DNA of 63,345 nucleotides, filler included. It is 8 parts of 8 records of this genome, joined end to end, with 100 filler letters (N's around TTAATTAATTAA, not from the genome) between each part and the next. Parts side by side here need not be neighbours in the genome. Positions count along the whole stretch, not along the records: positions 54,825 to 63,345 come from SRR31147125_22359; 7 more parts are not named here. The stretch is one strand, 5' to 3'. Shown here piece by piece: positions 54,725-63,345 of the stretch. Position numbers and translations under genes: made by a program. How positions within the stretch are numbered: position 1 is the first letter of the stretch; each line of letters starts with the position of its first letter. A model generated the notes under the pieces. That model did no database searches. It was not told where the DNA came from and saw only the letters and a list, made by a program, of their open reading frames with translations.

Positions 54725-54824
54725 NNNNNNNNNNNNNNNNNNNNNNNNNNNNNNNNNNNNNNNNNNNNTTAATTAATTAANNNNNNNNNNNNNNNNNNNN
54801 NNNNNNNNNNNNNNNNNNNNNNNN
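54725..54824. other. Artificial contig linker
   Basis: N-run, TTAATTAATTAA, N-run. Confidence 0.99.
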
Positions 54825-55740
54825 TGTTTTCTGTAGGAATCGTGGCCTCTAACCTAGTTAAAAGAAAACTAATATCTTCATCAAAGATTTCTTTTTCAGG
54901 TAGAGTTAAAGTAGATGCAATTCCATTACTCGTCACATCTTTTGCTCTTATCAAAAATTTCCAATTCTTTTGTTTAATGTGCTCAAAATTGTTATATCCT
55001 TCATAACCTCTATCAGCAATAACAATAGTTTTTTCAGAAAAAATAGAATTTTTAACTATTTCTCTTAAGGCTTGTCCTTCGCTTGCTTCTCTTCCATTTT
55101 GAATAGAAGCATCAGTGTAAATTCTACTGCATAGATCATAAGCTGCATTTAAGTGTAAAGAATTATGTCCTTTTCCTCTTTTGTTTGGAAAATATGTTTT
55201 ATTATCATTAGGATTATGAGAAATCGTTATTTTTGAACCATCTATTGCAAGTAAACGATATCCTTTAAATTTATTTGAATTCAAAGATTTTTTATTAAAA
55301 TTATTAAATATGAACTGAAAGGCGTCATGTGATATTTTATCTCTTTGCTGTATGAAAGCAGATGCAGTAGGTAATTTTAAATCAAAAGAAAAATATTCGA
55401 GAAGTTTATTATTTAAACTTTTTCCACCAGTAGAAAGAATTATTTTGATAATATCCTTAAAAGTCAGTTTTCTATTTCTAGTAAAATCCTTATCAGGATT
55501 CTTAAGATAAAGGTAAGAACAGTTTTGCAGTTCATTAATAGTCATTTCTAAATTATTTTTAACACTTTCAATGTATTTATTCATTTGTATCCTCCTTAAA
55601 AGTAATTACTTTATAAGGGCTACGCCACAAAAAATTGAAAAAATGTCAAGTAAAATCAAGCAAAAAACTAAAAAAAACAGAGCATGATTTTTATCATACT
55701 CTGTTTTGAAAAATATTTAATTCTTAACTTAATGACATTG
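54825..55740 (-). mobile_element. IS4-family insertion sequence, left part (transposase 55584 to contig edge)
   Basis: FTRNRKLTF, SAFIQQR, LAIDGS and IADRGY motifs; terminal IR CAATGTCATTAAGTTAAG (55740-55723) next to CTAG. Confidence 0.88.
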
Positions 55741-56999: not shown

Positions 57000-57269
57000 T
57001 AGAAAAATTTCCTAATAGAAATGTAATAACGCAGCAATCTGTAGACAAAATGATGAGAAAAAATTTAAAGAAGTTAAATATTCAGAATTAGGTTCACATC
57101 CCTTGGGACATACAAGAGCTATTATGCTACTTGATTATGGAATAGATATTGCAAAATTAAAATCGTTTTTGGGTATTTCGATTTAAAAAATATACTAATA
57201 TACTTAAAATATAGCAATGCTGCTTTAAAAGATTCTATCGATAAAGATAATAAAACCATAGGATTATGA
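57000..57269 (+). pseudogene. Tyrosine recombinase (integrase) remnant
   Basis: Fragments in different frames: SHPLGHTRAIMLLDYGIDIAKLKSFLG (degenerate HxLRH...LGH) and ILIYLKYS (catalytic Tyr region); boundaries approximate. Confidence 0.7.
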
Positions 57270-57477: not shown

Positions 57478-58749
57478 ATGATTATTGTATTTGAAGGGCT
57501 ACATGGAAGTGGAAAAACAAGCCAAATTAAATTGCTAAAGAAATGGTTTGAAAAAGAAAAGAAAAAAGTATTCTATTCAAATTGGAATTCATTTCCACTA
57601 CTACAAGAACTAAATCAAAAGTTAAAGTTCTCTGAAGAATTGTCGCCATATTCTTCTTTGTTAATACATACTCTCGATTTAAATTTAAGATATGAGAAAA
57701 TTTTAAACGAATATGATCCTAGTAAGGATATAATAATTTTTGATAGATATATATATACAAGCTTAATTAGAGAAGGATTAAGAAATATTTCAAAAGAGAA
57801 AATAAAAATATTTAATGAAACATTTCCAGAACCTGATCTGACATTTTTTATTGATATTTCTCCAGAAAAAAGTAGAAAAAGAATGAGGTTAAATCTAGAA
57901 AAAAGATCTCCATATATTATTGGGAAAGATTTAAATTACTCTAATGAACTAGAAGAAAACTTCAATATATATTTAAATCGACAAAGAAAAGAATACCTTA
58001 ATTTATTTAGAGAGAGAAATGAAAATACATATATAATAAATGGAGAAAATGATATAGATTGTAATCATAAATATATTAAATCGATAGTTCAAAATGAATT
58101 AAAAAAAATTATTCTAAACGTTGAAAAAGAAATTAAAATAAAATTAACTAAAGAACAATTTAGCTTAATTAAAAAAAATATAAGAATTAAATGCAATAAC
58201 TCAAGAAAAATAAACCAAATTAACTATTATATTGATTCAAATGACTTTGAATTAAAGAGGAACAAAATTACTATAAAACTTAGAGAATATATTGGAAAAA
58301 AAGGATTAGAACTAACCCTAAAATACAATTTAAAAGAAATAGAAAAGTTTAGTTTAAAGCAAAAAAATGAAGTAATAAATTGGATAAATTTTTCAATAAA
58401 TGACATAATCGGTAATTCAAAAGTTAAAAAGCAGTTATTTCAGCAAATAAAATTAAATCTAAAGGAGTTTGCTAACTATGATGTGAAAAATGAGATTCGC
58501 ATCATGGGAAAGCTAATGACAGAAAGAGAGTTATATGCTATTCCGGGATTAGAAAAAAACGTCATTTTGGATAAAAGTTTTTATTTAAATGAGATAGATT
58601 ATGAATTAGAACTAGAAAGTGATAATTATAAATCAGATTTTGAAAAACTAAGAAAATACCTTGAGAAATGTGGAGATATTTCTATGAGTTTCAATAAATC
58701 TAAATCAAGTCGGTTTTTCGATAAATACAAAAATATTGATTGTTATTAA
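57478..58749 (+). CDS. Thymidylate-kinase-like / CYTH two-domain fusion
   Basis: N-terminal FEGLHGSGKTSQ P-loop, FDRY and PEPDLTFFID; C-terminal EKEIK (ExExK), QINYYID, ELTLK, DYELELE. Confidence 0.85.
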   Translation: MIIVFEGLHGSGKTSQIKLLKKWFEKEKKKVFYSNWNSFPLLQELNQKLKFSEELSPYSSLLIHTLDLNLRYEKILNEYDPSKDIIIFDRYIYTSLIREGLRNISKEKIKIFNETFPEPDLTFFIDISPEKSRKRMRLNLEKRSPYIIGKDLNYSNELEENFNIYLNRQRKEYLNLFRERNENTYIINGENDIDCNHKYIKSIVQNELKKIILNVEKEIKIKLTKEQFSLIKKNIRIKCNNSRKINQINYYIDSNDFELKRNKITIKLREYIGKKGLELTLKYNLKEIEKFSLKQKNEVINWINFSINDIIGNSKVKKQLFQQIKLNLKEFANYDVKNEIRIMGKLMTERELYAIPGLEKNVILDKSFYLNEIDYELELESDNYKSDFEKLRKYLEKCGDISMSFNKSKSSRFFDKYKNIDCY

Positions 58750-58824
58750 CTACTAACTTAAGTCGTAAAATTTTCATTACATATATTTTAATGAAATTAA
58801 TTAAGTATTGAAAGGGGGAGAAAA

Positions 58825-58908
58825 ATGAATAATTATAATAAACCAGTTTTAGTTAAAGAAACTAACGAAACAAAAGTTGCTAAAGTAATTTGCAGCGAGG
58901 AGTTATAA
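58825..58908 (+). CDS. Putative RiPP precursor peptide, 27 aa (not in ORF track)
   Basis: AAAGGGGGAG RBS at 58811-58820; MNNYNKPVLVKETNETKVAKVICSEEL contains YxxPxL; PqqD gene two genes downstream. Confidence 0.8.
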   Translation: MNNYNKPVLVKETNETKVAKVICSEEL

Positions 58909-58914
58909 GAAAAA

Positions 58915-58938
58915 AGAGCTAGCCTTACGGCTAGCTCT
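58915..58938 (+). terminator. Hairpin after the precursor gene (leaky terminator or mRNA stabiliser)
   Basis: AGAGCTAGCC-TTAC-GGCTAGCTCT perfect 10-bp stem; no U-tract on the + strand. Confidence 0.65.
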
Positions 58939-58974: not shown

Positions 58975-59727
58975 ATGAATAAAAAATTAGAAAAAAGATT
59001 AAATGAGATTGATATTAATATAAAAGATATTTTAAAAAAAATTGAACTAAACTCTCAAGAAAGTGTTGTCATGTATAGTTCACATATTGAGGGATTGGGA
59101 ACAGATGAATCAGATTTAGATATTTATGTAATCTGCAAAGAAATACCAATCATTAAAAATGCAAGGCGAACACCATATTCGGTAGTTCAAATTGCTTTTA
59201 TAAATAATGTTAAATTAGACATTGAATATCTAACTTACGAAACAGTAAAGAAATTATTAAATAAATTGCAAAGTGGAAAATCTTTGACAAATGAAGAAGT
59301 TAAAATTTTAAACAGATTGAAAGTTGGAGAATATATTCTAAAAAATGAACACCAAATGAAATTAATGAATGAAATTGAAAAAAATAAATTAAATGAACAC
59401 TTAAAGAATTATTTTATTGTTAATTCAAATTCGGAAGAAGCAGATGCTGTAACTATGTATAAAGCTAATAATTTAAATGCAGCAATTTCTTGTGCCAGAA
59501 GAGCTCTAGATTATTCAGTTGGGGCGTTTAATTGTAATAGTGGATATACAAACCCAAATGTCAAATGGATTCCCAAAATTTTTATTGAGTATTCTTCAGA
59601 TTCAGATTTAAGAGAGGAATATTTAAATCTTCAAATATTTTCAAAAGTGACTAAGGAAAACATTCGAGAGCAAATTGAGGCTATATTAAGTTTAAGACAA
59701 GAAATAATATCGAGTTTATTATTTTGA
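58975..59727 (+). CDS. Pol-beta-superfamily nucleotidyltransferase with helical (HEPN-like) C-terminal domain
   Basis: YSSHIEGLGTDESDLDIYV fits the [G/S]S-x9-13-DhD motif; third Asp in KLDIEY; helical C-terminus. Confidence 0.8.
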   Translation: MNKKLEKRLNEIDINIKDILKKIELNSQESVVMYSSHIEGLGTDESDLDIYVICKEIPIIKNARRTPYSVVQIAFINNVKLDIEYLTYETVKKLLNKLQSGKSLTNEEVKILNRLKVGEYILKNEHQMKLMNEIEKNKLNEHLKNYFIVNSNSEEADAVTMYKANNLNAAISCARRALDYSVGAFNCNSGYTNPNVKWIPKIFIEYSSDSDLREEYLNLQIFSKVTKENIREQIEAILSLRQEIISSLLF

Positions 59728-60007: not shown

Positions 60008-60757
60008 ATGAGTCAACCTTACATCTTTAAAAAACAAATAATTGGAGTTATTTTTTGTTTATTAGTAGCTATCTTTTATAAATATATACTAAAAAATGAA
60101 ATATTGTTTGAAAGTTCCATTTACTATTTATTTTTATTATTAAGCATCACATTTATTCCAAGTATAGGTTTATTAAGGCTCTCTAAAAAGCTTAAACTTA
60201 TTGTAATATCGGTTTTTTTCTATATTTCACTTTTTTTTCCATTAATGTTTGGAAAAATTGATATTACAATTTATTGCTCTTTTGAAAAACTAGCTCTTGC
60301 GGTTTTAGTTGGAGGAATTTTAGTTGTTCTTAAGTATCTTTATTTGAAATTTAATGGAATAGATAATCAGAATGTTATATCTTTTACAAAAATTAGTAAA
60401 CTAAGGGCAATTCATAATACTTATCTATACTTAATTCCAGTAATAGGGGAAGAAATATTTTTCAGAGGATATTTAACTAGGGTATTATATCCAAAATATG
60501 GAGAAATATCATTGTTGATAATTTCGTTTCTTTTTGTATATATTCACTATTTAAATAGATGGTCTAATATTATTTTTACTAAAGGAAGTTATTTTTTTCA
60601 TTTTTTAAACTCTTTGATATTTTGTATTATGTATATTTATACTGATAACCTTATACCAGTAATATTATGTCATTTAATTTTTAACATTGATAGAATATTG
60701 GAAACAGTTAAAAGAGTTAGAAAAGAAGATATAAGTTATTCCTTTAATGATTATTAA
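60008..60757 (+). CDS. CPBP (CAAX/Abi) intramembrane protease
   Basis: EEIFFRG, F..IH and H..FN motifs; multiple TMs. Confidence 0.88.
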   Translation: MSQPYIFKKQIIGVIFCLLVAIFYKYILKNEILFESSIYYLFLLLSITFIPSIGLLRLSKKLKLIVISVFFYISLFFPLMFGKIDITIYCSFEKLALAVLVGGILVVLKYLYLKFNGIDNQNVISFTKISKLRAIHNTYLYLIPVIGEEIFFRGYLTRVLYPKYGEISLLIISFLFVYIHYLNRWSNIIFTKGSYFFHFLNSLIFCIMYIYTDNLIPVILCHLIFNIDRILETVKRVRKEDISYSFNDY

Positions 60758-60783: not shown

Positions 60784-61590
60784 ATGAGGACAATTTATGC
60801 AGTAATGGAACGAAATATAATTACAAAGTTAAGAGCATACCCATATTCATTTTTTCTGGGTGGAATTCTTACAAAGTTTTATTTAGTTTTGGCATCGTAT
60901 TTAATTTTTAATCATTTATATGATGGAAAAGTATCAGAAAAATTTATAAAATACGCTAATATAGATGATTATATGACATATGTAATCATTGGAGCTTCTT
61001 TCTATATGTTTATAAGGAGAACTATATTAAGTGTTAGTAGAAGCTTCATTACAGAAATGAGAGAAGGTACTTTAGAAAGTTTATTAATTACTCCAATGAA
61101 GTACACTAGTTATTTAATAGGAAATATGCTAGAACAATCTCTTTTAACTTTTTTGGAAGTAATTCTTGCTTTTATAATTTGCATACCATTCGGATTTAAA
61201 ATAAGCAGTGTCAATGGAGAAGGGATAATTTTAACAATAATTTTATCATTATACTCTTTTTTCGGACTTTCAATATTTATTTGTGCACTAATGATTCAGT
61301 TTAAAGACACCTATATAATTCAAAATACGTTTTTTTATTTATTAGCTATTTTAGCAGGAATATACTTTCCAATAGACTATTTACCTAAAAAAATTCAATT
61401 ATTATCAAATCTTTTACCAGTAACTTACTCAATGTCATTGTTTAGAGGAATGCTAATGGAAAAACTAGTTATAAATAATATCTTAGGAATAATTTTTAAA
61501 CTATTACTTTCATCAAGTATATATTTAATTATTGGTTGGGTTATACTAAAAGTCTACTTAAAAAAAGCAGTTTCAAATCAGTTTATATAG
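60784..61590 (+). CDS. ABC-2 type exporter permease
   Basis: EMREGTLESLLITP, GIYFPIDYLP, about six TMs. Confidence 0.9.
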   Translation: MRTIYAVMERNIITKLRAYPYSFFLGGILTKFYLVLASYLIFNHLYDGKVSEKFIKYANIDDYMTYVIIGASFYMFIRRTILSVSRSFITEMREGTLESLLITPMKYTSYLIGNMLEQSLLTFLEVILAFIICIPFGFKISSVNGEGIILTIILSLYSFFGLSIFICALMIQFKDTYIIQNTFFYLLAILAGIYFPIDYLPKKIQLLSNLLPVTYSMSLFRGMLMEKLVINNILGIIFKLLLSSSIYLIIGWVILKVYLKKAVSNQFI

Positions 61591-61605: not shown

Positions 61606-62590
61606 ATGATCGTTGTAAAAGATTTAAAAAAATTATAAAAAAATTATAAAAAAAAGTTTTTTTAGAAAAAAATGTTACAGAAGTCGAAGCTCTAAAAGGA
61701 ATAAACCTTTCAATAGAACCTGGTAAAATAGTTGGTTTACTAGGAATTAATGGGGCTGGCAAAACAACCACAATAAAAATTTTATCTACTTTATTAACTA
61801 AGACGTCCGGTGAGATTTATATAGATGAAGAAAGAATTGATAAAGATGAAAAAAAAGTTAGAGAAAAAATCAACATGATTGCTGGTGGTGAAAGAATGTT
61901 GTATTGGAGGCTTACAGCAAGAGAAAATTTAAAATATTTTGGAAGACTTTACAACCTAAATGAAAGTAAATTAAATGAAACAATAGATAAATTACTAGAT
62001 TTTTTTGATTTACAAGACAGGGCTGATGAACCAATTGAAAATTATTCCAAAGGAATGAAGCAGAGAATTCAAATTGCCAGAGGATTAATTAATGATCCTA
62101 AATATATATTTTTAGATGAGCCCACTTTAGGTCTAGATGTCTTGATAGCAAAAGAGGTTAGAAACCTTATAAAAAAATTAGCACAAGAACAAAATAAAGG
62201 AATTCTTCTTACTTCACATTATTTGAACGAAATAGAAGAATTATGTGATTATGTTTATATTATCGATAACGGAAGAAACATTCTGGAAGGCTCTCCAAAA
62301 GAAATTATTAAAAGAATAACAAGTAATAAAAAAGAGTATATTTTAGAAATTAAAGATAGTGAAAACTATGTTACAAAACTAGAAAAAGAAATATATCAAG
62401 ATATTAAAATAGAAGAAAAAGATAATGAAACTTTACTTTTATCTGTTAAATTAAATTCTACTGAAAAGAAAAAGCTTTTTCTGATATTGAAGACAAAGCA
62501 GAAATTATTAGTTATAGTACTAAAAATACTGATTTAGAGGAAGCTATCATAATGCTTTCGGAGGATATAAAAAATGATGTATATATTTAG
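61606..62590 (+). CDS. ABC exporter ATPase, disrupted by frameshifts in homopolymer tracts
   Basis: AGGAGG RBS and ATG at 61606; Walker A GINGAGKTT lies upstream of the tracked ORF in its frame; YSKGMKQR, LDEPT; a C-terminus with TDLEEAI continues in another frame. Confidence 0.8.
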
Positions 62591-63345
62591 AGTTATTTAT
62601 GCTGAATTTATAAAACAAATTAAAAATAAATATCATTCTGGTTTAATTATATTTTCAATGCTTCTTTGGCCAATTCTTAAAATGTATGTGACATATTTTG
62701 TCTATAAACCCTTTGAAGGGGTAAAGTTAAATGATCAAAACATAAGTTTAATTTCAGAAGAAAACATGTTAGCCTTTCTACTTTATGGATATCTTGCTTT
62801 AATGTTTTATAATAGTTTTATAAAATCTGCATGGATTTTTTCAAGAGAAAGAATTATGGGAACCATTGAAAGTATTTATTTAACCCCTGCTTCAAGAGAG
62901 GCCGTTTTATTTGGAAATGCATTATCATCGATGATAGAAAATGTTTGGCTTTATACTATTTTTTCATTAGTACTCGCAAAATTCTTTTCTAATAGTAATC
63001 AGGAAAATTTAATAATTGTTTTAGTTAGTATATTAACACTTTTAATTCCTGCACTTGTTTGGGGAATGTTTCTAAATTCAATTTTTATATTTTCTAGGGA
63101 TATCGGAGTTATGTTGTCATTTTTAGATGACCCCATGGAAATATTTTCTGGAGTTAAAATACCGTTTCTATCACTTCCGGCTTGGGCAAGAACTATAGGA
63201 TCCTTATTTCCGCTTACTTGGTCATTAATGATTATAAGAAAAGTTTTCATAGATGGGGCATCGCTTAAAGAATTAAAATTAGAAATTTTAGTTACACTAA
63301 TAATTTCTATCGTTATTTTAATATGTACTTTCTTTTTAATTAAAA
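62574..63345 (+). CDS. Second ABC-2 exporter permease, running off the window end (not in ORF track)
   Basis: GGAGG RBS; MMYIFRVIYAEF...RERIMGTIESIYLTP...FSGVKIPF.SLP. Confidence 0.88.
   Translation, partial: MMYIFRVIYAEFIKQIKNKYHSGLIIFSMLLWPILKMYVTYFVYKPFEGVKLNDQNISLISEENMLAFLLYGYLALMFYNSFIKSAWIFSRERIMGTIESIYLTPASREAVLFGNALSSMIENVWLYTIFSLVLAKFFSNSNQENLIIVLVSILTLLIPALVWGMFLNSIFIFSRDIGVMLSFLDDPMEIFSGVKIPFLSLPAWARTIGSLFPLTWSLMIIRKVFIDGASLKELKLEILVTLIISIVILICTFFLIK

Follow-up and report, generated by a model that had tools for sequence, protein, structure and literature searches.

Comparison with homologous loci identifies a 27-codon open reading frame (ORF) in the stretch of DNA analyzed here (63,345 nucleotides, hereafter the window) as a genuine carrier-peptide gene of a gene-cluster family. 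As read from sequence, the core module of this family is the precursor, a nucleotidyltransferase (NTase), a lasso-B1-type RRE, a CPBP protease, an exporter, and a CYTH triphosphatase, with a variable kinase, nucleotide, or aminosugar operon alongside. This is apparently a RiPP family undescribed so far, with a peptide-carrier logic and a chemistry that we infer: these clusters probably couple a small phosphorylated molecule (in many cases a modified nucleotide) to a 4-8-residue peptide at one of its ends and send the conjugate out of the cell as a kind of natural prodrug.

The cluster in the window

The cluster genes share one strand, in the order dTMP-kinase-CYTH fusion, peptide, 250-aa NTase, RRE, CPBP protease, and ABC-2 exporter (Table 1), and the window ends inside the cluster, with the exporter running off its end (63345). 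The block has a G+C content of 24.9%, compared with 36.5% for window positions 1-54700, and it was probably acquired, because of this low G+C and because a transposase and a recombinase-like remnant lie upstream. The remnant (~57050-57190, plus strand) is short, resembles by eye the C-terminal part of a tyrosine recombinase, and lies just 5' of the low-GC cluster. Seven pairs of N runs with an identical layout occur in the window. Three-frame translation of the exporter ATPase places the Walker A motif in frame upstream of the listed start, with the apparent start codon out of that frame, and the C-terminal part likewise seems to run on in a separate frame; the gene looks frameshifted near both ends, by decay or assembly error, and since the frame looks broken twice, the window copy of the cluster may be decaying.

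Table 1. Features of the window cluster, and content of payload operons at homologous loci (L-numbers)
Feature	Position	Strand	Basis or content
DDE transposase	54769-55584	-	PF01609; adjoins masked gap
dTMP-kinase-like P-loop kinase (about aa 1-210) + YjbK-type CYTH/triphosphate-tunnel fusion	57478..58749	+	PF02223 E 1e-24; PF01928 E 4e-11
Ribosome-binding site of precursor	58811..58820	+	G-rich, AAAGGGGGAG; from sequence
Precursor gene	58825..58908	+	reads MNNYNKPVLVKETNETKVAKVICSEEL then TAA; 27 aa
Stem-loop after precursor gene	58915..58938	+	10-bp hairpin
Pol-beta-type nucleotidyltransferase, helical HEPN-like C-domain	58975..59727	+	invariant residues, AF2 fold matches
Stand-alone RRE (PqqD family, lasso B1 type), 85 aa	59744..60001	+	PF05402 E 6e-12
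CPBP/Rce1-type intramembrane protease, candidate leader peptidase	60008..60757	+	PF02517 E 1e-15
ABC-2 exporter permease 1	60784..61590	+	PF01061
ABC exporter ATPase	61875..62537	+	PF00005; listed ORF 220 aa, about 330 in homologues
ABC-2 exporter permease 2, 3'-open at window end	62574..63344	+	PF01061
Payload operons, L057 and L058 (Geobacillus pGeo12a and S. salivarius pSaLI10)	L057: 5442-14196; L058: 2849-12689		two thymidylate synthase-like genes, QueA-like, NUDIX/MutT, second PqqD-like protein
Payload operon, L018			GTP cyclohydrolase II, OMP decarboxylase
Payload operon, L008			YfbR-like 5'-deoxynucleotidase, B12 radical SAM
Payload operons, L024 and L030			DNA glycosylases
Payload operon, L002/L061			aminoglycoside-like: DHQ-synthase-like cyclase, glycosyltransferase, deacetylase, aminotransferases, carbamoyltransferase, APH
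Payload operon, L056			radical SAM, ATP-grasp, transaminase, APH

Evidence for the precursor gene

The ORF is judged real because of its conservation and not because of its leader motif and ribosome-binding site, which alone are near chance: two ORFs of 18-34 aa in window positions 1-61500 carry both, against a shuffle mean of 1.0 (range 0-3, n=30). The initial annotation had proposed the ORF as a precursor and had named beforehand an equivalent ORF at NTase homologues as what a real gene should show; precursors of 19-28 aa were indeed found adjoining the same NTase in 23 distinct loci besides the window. When a profile was built by leaving out each locus in turn, the precursor was the best-scoring short ORF in 20/20 loci, and the window peptide, scored with a profile built without it, reached 24.8 bits compared with 4.9 for the runner-up among 1681 short ORFs. 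A 20-sequence profile recovered the precursors (E<0.001) in three of four independent plasmid clusters (L056, L057, and L059); that of L058 scores 3.8 bits and was recognized solely through its motif and ribosome-binding site. With a short ORF, a conserved leader motif, and a discrete RRE alongside, the locus has the sequence features expected of an RRE-dependent RiPP precursor.

The hairpin that follows the precursor gene has a z-score of -3.83, none of 200 shuffles being equally stable, and 18 of the 24 loci have a fold of -13 kcal/mol or lower inside the 60 nt past the precursor stop (the shuffle comparison applies to the window hairpin). The stem-loop probably sets the ratio of precursor to enzyme mRNA. 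Three near-identical copies of a 19-aa precursor occur at L059:11048-11487, and at L041:1855-1896 a precursor-like ORF next to a partial NTase ends after 13 residues, probably as a broken copy.

Distribution and composition of homologous loci

The motif scan yielded 27 genome and 28 metagenome loci, with the NTase detected by profile in 19 and 26 of them, respectively; searches of plasmids returned another 8 and 3 records, and five of these were examined. Duplicates were removed (L038, L042, and L049 equal L014; L051 equals L009; L044 equals L039; L062-L064 equal L023, L005, and L003). Because the scan pattern favored the Tyr-x-Ser clade, these loci do not sample the family at random. Family profiles were built partly from these same proteins, and Pfam or record annotation supports the families independently. 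In a 401-genome family sample, of which 385 were scored, the four matches were three loci already in the set and one truncated, distant NTase without a precursor.

Among the 24 distinct loci with a precursor, window included, the RRE is present in 23 and the CPBP protease in 21. Considering the 20 loci represented by at least 10 kb, CYTH occurs in 16 (the L002 copy lies 14 kb downstream) and a kinase of the di/triphosphate type in 17 (TMK-like in 11, pyruvate-kinase-like in 5, PPDK-like in 2, and weakly NDK-like in 1); a TMK-, PK-, or PPDK-like kinase is found in 16, and all 20 have either CYTH or such a kinase. The NTase gene directly adjoins the precursor or the RRE in most loci, and at L018 and L024 the RRE is cotranscribed with the protease and the NTase lies on the opposite strand. 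The NTase loci outside this set are either too short to be assessed or, in ten cases not obviously cut short (L003, L006, L020, L022, L027, L034, L035, L039, L040, and L065), show no recognizable precursor, so the NTase family does not always need a peptide.

Complete clusters occur in the cultured strains Geobacillus thermodenitrificans T12, Clostridium estertheticum DSM 14864, S. salivarius SALI-10, and Bacillus toyonensis DC11. Most hosts are Bacillota from gut, oral, food, and thermophilic settings, and the Streptococcus salivarius plasmid pSaLI10 is among the carriers. The four plasmid records that contain the module all leave the precursor without annotation and label the NTase a "hypothetical protein."

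Payload operons differ from locus to locus (Table 1), and the only payload-building gene in the window is the kinase. The kinases nearest to it (36-42%) are those of L056, L048, L015, and L009, which sit in operons that are not obviously nucleotide pathways; the window payload may thus be a non-nucleotide surrogate. Two unknown payload proteins gave no significant match in a PDB sequence search. A NUDIX-like domain seems to be fused to the CYTH of L058. L002 and L061 together form a cluster of about 24 kb in Clostridiaceae bacterium M8S5, where the aminoglycoside-like set is joined to the precursor module.

Leader, candidate cleavage sites, and tail of the peptide

The YxxPxL leader reported by the initial annotation (Y4, P7, and L9 in the window peptide) is conserved as [YF]xxPx[IL] over 20 precursors, with Y in 17 and F in 3, P in 20/20, and I, L, or A in 13, 6, and 1. 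Twelve residues after the proline (P+12) stands Ala in 14/20 and Gly in 2/20 (A19 in the window). Counted from the C-terminus, residue -5 is A, G, or C in 18/24 precursors (shuffle mean 6.2; C23 in the window) and the final residue is I, V, L, or A in 19/24 (shuffle mean 13.6, p 0.016), both residue classes having been picked after the first 20 peptides were inspected and the loci being related. The -5 rule also covers three of the four plasmid peptides, a group in which the P+12 spacing is mostly not kept. Two candidate cut sites follow, one after A19 that would give KVICSEEL and one after C23 that would give SEEL, and both cuts may occur, because many of the tails, which are hydrophobic and extend 4-8 residues past P+12, read as four-residue units (GLLA-ALLA, TVVG-TVVG). 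A single fixed cut at P+12 for all precursors was rejected, the leaders of L057-L059 being shorter. The KVICSEEL core of the initial annotation remains one of two likely cores, since it follows the conserved Ala; the second possible cut had been overlooked.

An alignment of homologous short ORFs, proposed earlier as a way to find an invariant core residue, revealed no conserved tail side chain over 24 precursors. The last eight residues include Cys in 6 precursors, Ser and Glu in 7 each, and Tyr in none; three precursors (L018, L032, and L043) have none of C/S/T/Y/K/D/E there, and eight of the 24 have none in the last four. With no conserved nucleophilic or acidic tail side chain, a family-wide reaction would therefore have to use a peptide terminus. 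Of the acceptors listed initially, this removes Cys, Ser, and Glu and keeps the C-terminal carboxylate, beside the amine freed by cleavage. The earlier reading was thus right about the precursor, its leader, and the RRE type and wrong about side chains, and it missed the role of the upstream kinase-CYTH protein. The thiolactone of staphylococcal AIP has Cys at -5; a thiolactone of that kind was discarded here, Cys being at -5 in only 2/24 precursors, as was AMPylation of a tail Tyr, with Tyr in 0/24 tails.

The NTase and its partner proteins

Pol-beta-like nucleotidyltransferases carry a GS motif that precedes DxD. In all 44 close relatives aligned with the window NTase the Ser is retained and the Gly swapped (T21, S8, I7, C6, A1, M1), with an invariant Tyr one place earlier, so donor binding would not be standard. 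D47, D49, D82, S36, Y34, K197, and W198 are invariant in the same 44/44, and the aspartate triad is, by sequence, intact. The AF2 model (pLDDT 96) has the fold of ANT(4')/KNTase (TM about 0.62), LinB, and 3c18, and the enzyme's neighbors in the atlas are PF01909 clusters; the window NTase thus combines the fold and the three catalytic aspartates of the pol-beta-like (ANT/KNTase-like) enzymes. Relatives number 240 at E<=0.001. Pfam gave nothing above cut-off for the 250-aa protein, including no PF14907 match; a PDB sequence search had no significant match, a word-index protein search found one relative only, viral contigs held none, and the NTase tree gives no nearest cluster for the window enzyme. 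One natural NTase-RRE fusion was found (P0038; Pfam PqqD E 0.003). The L059 NTase retains the GS motif and groups with a distant clade.

By fold, the modeled RRE is close to PqqD and to TbiB1 and 6jx3 of the lasso B1 type (TM 0.74-0.80), in line with the initial annotation, which named YxxPxL as a motif bound by lasso-type B1 RREs and pointed to this adjacent 85-aa protein as the RRE. Its N31, invariant in 17/17, plausibly corresponds (mapped by eye) to LppB N33, the residue that fixes the leader proline (PMC13381572, available in part). The CPBP motifs E148-E149, F176/H180, and H222/N226 are invariant in 15/15.

The kinase-CYTH fusion had no relatives at E<=1e-25 in the word-index protein search, and kinase and CYTH are separate genes in L015, L023, and L056. 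The closest PDB entries for the fusion are GBAA_1210/BH2851 (CYTH domain) and 2plr. CYTH catalytic residues are invariant in 11/11 aligned homologues, as is D163-E165-E167-E169. Related proteins lie near the clusters at L015:14467-15120 and L059:429-1109, and the L059 protein is annotated as VTC-domain, presumably a second protein of the triphosphate-tunnel type. A C-terminal DxExExE motif sets YjbK-type CYTH proteins apart from class IV adenylate cyclases, which lack it (PMC5217690, available in part); class IV adenylate cyclase was rejected as the identity of the CYTH domain, given the presence of DxExExE and the YjbK-type PDB neighbors. For a related CYTH from an archaeon, inorganic triphosphate is the preferred substrate (PMC8233210, available in part).

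Comparison with known systems

The system would work like fosfazinomycin assembly and microcin C, but it lacks defining features of both, and also of lasso peptides and linear polyphosphorylated peptides (LPP). In fosfazinomycin, assembled on the 22-mer YxxP precursor FzmZ by FzmA/F/K/T/U, two kinases make a triphosphate surrogate (a phosphonate), and the NTase, whose gene is paired with that of a discrete RRE, attaches it to the peptide C-terminus; FzmU acts via attack by a hydrazide made by an enzyme similar to asparagine synthetase, and FzmT is dispensable in vitro (PMC13622209, available in part). By eye, fzmK encodes a dTMP-kinase-like P-loop protein, and the FzmU motif type, GSxxxGWGNxxSDxD, recurs in 21 of the 150 NTase relatives listed. 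Both systems have an unannotated, very short YxxP precursor and a discrete RRE beside an NTase; on these by-eye readings they may also share the NTase motif type and a dTMP-kinase-like enzyme, and, by analogy, the putative peptide-end ligation and Trojan-horse logic. Unlike fosfazinomycin, the present clusters have a dedicated CPBP protease, CYTH, and exporter, interchangeable payload operons, and mainly Bacillota hosts, and C-terminal Arg in 0/24 precursors. Neither an asparagine-synthetase-like (hydrazide- or amide-forming) gene nor PEP mutase or phosphonate genes were found among the chosen neighbors scanned or in the four plasmid annotations; lacking the first, the acceptor would differ from that of fosfazinomycin.

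Microcin C-like systems use a ThiF-family adenylyltransferase (MccB) and a C-terminal Asn. In both microcin C and, by analogy, the system described here, a ribosomal peptide would carry a nucleotide at its C-terminus for uptake (PMC9239234, available in part). The differences are the pol-beta/ANT(4')/LinB fold rather than ThiF/MccB, a C-terminal Asn in only 1/24 precursors, and a leader predicted to be bound by an RRE and cleaved off. No aminoacyl-tRNA synthetase paralogue was seen among the neighbors scanned.

LPP, as described in the available part of PMC13381572, shares with our clusters the Bacillota hosts, a YxxP leader (Y-16, P-13), a discrete RRE, an NTase gene, and the lack of a lasso cyclase, and even the spacing is alike, the LppA leader ending at P+12, where these precursors have Ala (14/20). 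In contrast to LPP, the clusters have a CPBP/Rce1 protease (21/24 loci) rather than an SpI-like leader peptidase, precursors of 19-28 rather than 35-200 aa, a window NTase without a PF14907 match, and no conserved HprK kinase or Ser acceptor (HprK-related matches occur only in L009 and L055, with a homologue of the L009 protein in L056). Lasso peptides share the Y/WxxP leader and the B1-type RRE fold; unlike them, the clusters have no conserved ring-forming residue (Asp/Glu 7-9 plus tail), and neither cyclase C nor B2 protease was found among the window genes up to the 3' cut, the neighbors scanned, and the four plasmid annotations. With tails of only 4-8 residues after P+12 as well, the peptide is not taken for a lasso substrate, in agreement with the earlier remark that it is too short for a lasso ring plus tail.

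Searches of the literature outside subscription journals yielded no account of these genes as a set; subscription articles and supplementary RRE-mining tables could list such clusters; the search terms are absent from the available part of PMC12710340, and PMC10036551, PMC9389541, and PMC11002830, as far as they are available, concern other systems.

Proposed mechanism and alternative explanations

By analogy with fosfazinomycin FzmK/FzmU, we propose a model, in our view reasonably probable, in which kinases build a triphosphate payload, the NTase moves its monophosphate to the peptide end, the CPBP protease trims, and the conjugate is exported. Its fold and conservation suggest that the RRE would bind the YxxPxL leader, and the cluster kinases would take a modified nucleotide or other phosphorylated small molecule to the triphosphate, from which the NTase would move the monophosphate onto a peptide terminus with release of PPi. 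The acceptor would most likely be the C-terminal carboxylate of the leader-bound peptide, a choice favored by the constrained last residue and by the NTase-RRE fusion P0038; alternatively, the alpha-amine freed by cleavage would yield a phosphoramidate, which is favored by its chemical stability and by the nitrogen nucleophile that FzmU uses. Bare acyl phosphates are labile. The CPBP protease would cut after a small residue, leaving KVICSEEL or SEEL, the ABC exporter would secrete the conjugate, and neighboring cells would, by analogy, take it up via peptide permeases and free the payload. CYTH may strip spare triphosphate or a (poly)phosphate by-product. Counting against the model are the failure to find a hydrazide- or amide-forming gene among the neighbors scanned, the loss of the GS glycine, the peptide-less loci, the grouping of the RRE with the protease in some loci, the dispensability of FzmT in vitro, the seemingly frameshifted ATPase, and the lack of any payload gene but the kinase in the window.

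The lability problem would be escaped if the NTase adenylated the C-terminal carboxylate with ordinary ATP and an amine payload then attacked to form a stable peptidyl amide, the kinases and CYTH providing only transient protective phosphorylation. Many payload operons do have aminotransferases or a decarboxylase (L002/L061, L015, L056, L057, and L059), and the ThiF-type enzyme EnfB amidates a precursor C-terminus with amines (PMC11256085, available in part). We nonetheless consider this route unlikely: the NTase fold is that of ANT/LinB and not ThiF, the TMK-, PK-, or PPDK-like kinases in 16/20 long loci would be left unexplained, and L008, L018, and L030 have no amine-making enzyme among the genes scanned. 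Still less probable is a product consisting of peptide only, either a 4-8-mer cyclized head to tail after transient C-terminal adenylation or a small hydrophobic signal, with the nucleotide genes as coregulated passengers. Hydrophobic tails with four-residue periodicity, an Rgg regulator adjoining the precursor in L014, and L004, which shows the core module and CYTH only (its contig begins 270 bp upstream), speak for such a product; a CYTH or nucleotide-type kinase at 20/20 long loci, fused directly upstream in the window, and a different small-molecule operon at each locus, several with NUDIX, glycosylase, or HD genes, speak against it.

That the NTase modifies a core Cys, Ser, or Glu, as the window peptide (C23, S24, E25, E26) and the 21/24 precursors with some C/S/T/Y/K/D/E in the last eight residues might suggest, is very improbable, because the precursors agree on neither the type nor the place of such a residue and, as noted above, some tails have none. 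We give as little credence to an NTase acting as an ANT-like self-resistance or tailoring enzyme for a small molecule, with the peptide only a protease substrate or export signal. Its closest folds are antibiotic nucleotidyltransferases, one cluster is aminoglycoside-like, and peptide-less NTase loci exist; but in most loci its gene is the immediate neighbor of the precursor or the RRE, P0038 joins it to an RRE in one protein, and widely differing payloads would all need to be inactivated by one family of enzymes.

Implications

An extension of the phosphotransfer model, which we put forward tentatively and with some doubt, is a general, plug-and-play natural prodrug platform in which one NTase family links chemically unrelated phosphorylated warheads directly to a ribosomal peptide of 4-8 residues at its unmodified end. 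If true, the warheads would include hypermodified deoxynucleotides that damage target DNA and an aminoglycoside-like compound, and bacteria would have a route for bringing charged monophosphates into competitors. The analysis defines a RiPP family that annotation pipelines miss, and would carry NTP-surrogate ligation beyond the one phosphonate of fosfazinomycin to an apparently wide range of payloads. With NTase-RRE-CPBP-CYTH as a signature, genomes can be mined for new antimicrobials of the nucleotide-analogue and aminosugar kinds. A useful biocatalyst would result if the enzyme does load monophosphates onto short peptides of variable sequence, and YjbK-type CYTH proteins gain a testable pathway context.

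Related loci and remnants

A high-GC clade (L012, L034, L035, and L047) has the kinase and NTase, the longer loci adding a DegT aminotransferase and a nucleoside phosphorylase-like gene; RRE and precursor were not found in these four loci. Another, supported NTase clade (L003:9902-10786, L013:53-904, L027:2807-3718, and L039:6689-7531) has a conserved C-terminal extension and an internal insertion, and no precursor, RRE, or CPBP protease was seen at its loci; CYTH and a gene of PPDK- or PK-like type are still present at L003 and L039, as is the exporter at L003 and L027. The C-terminal tail of this clade may replace the peptide.

Matches of the motif scan that lacked an NTase profile match numbered 8/27 in genomes and 2/28 in metagenomes. 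Two are ribosomal-protein operons, and most of the others share an IS-flanked tmk-pyrF piece, followed in L036 by an NTase 5' fragment. The same arrangement of tmk-pyrF pair, NTase 5' fragment, and IS elements is seen in an Enterococcus faecium plasmid (L060:6456-8165) and at L036:6589-8500, and, given the likeness of this pair to the one in L018, it may be what remains of an L018-like cluster. L007, L010, and L025 belong to the same group. The tmk-pyrF piece, of low-GC type, also lies on short contigs of several Streptomyces/Microbispora assemblies, which suggests contamination.
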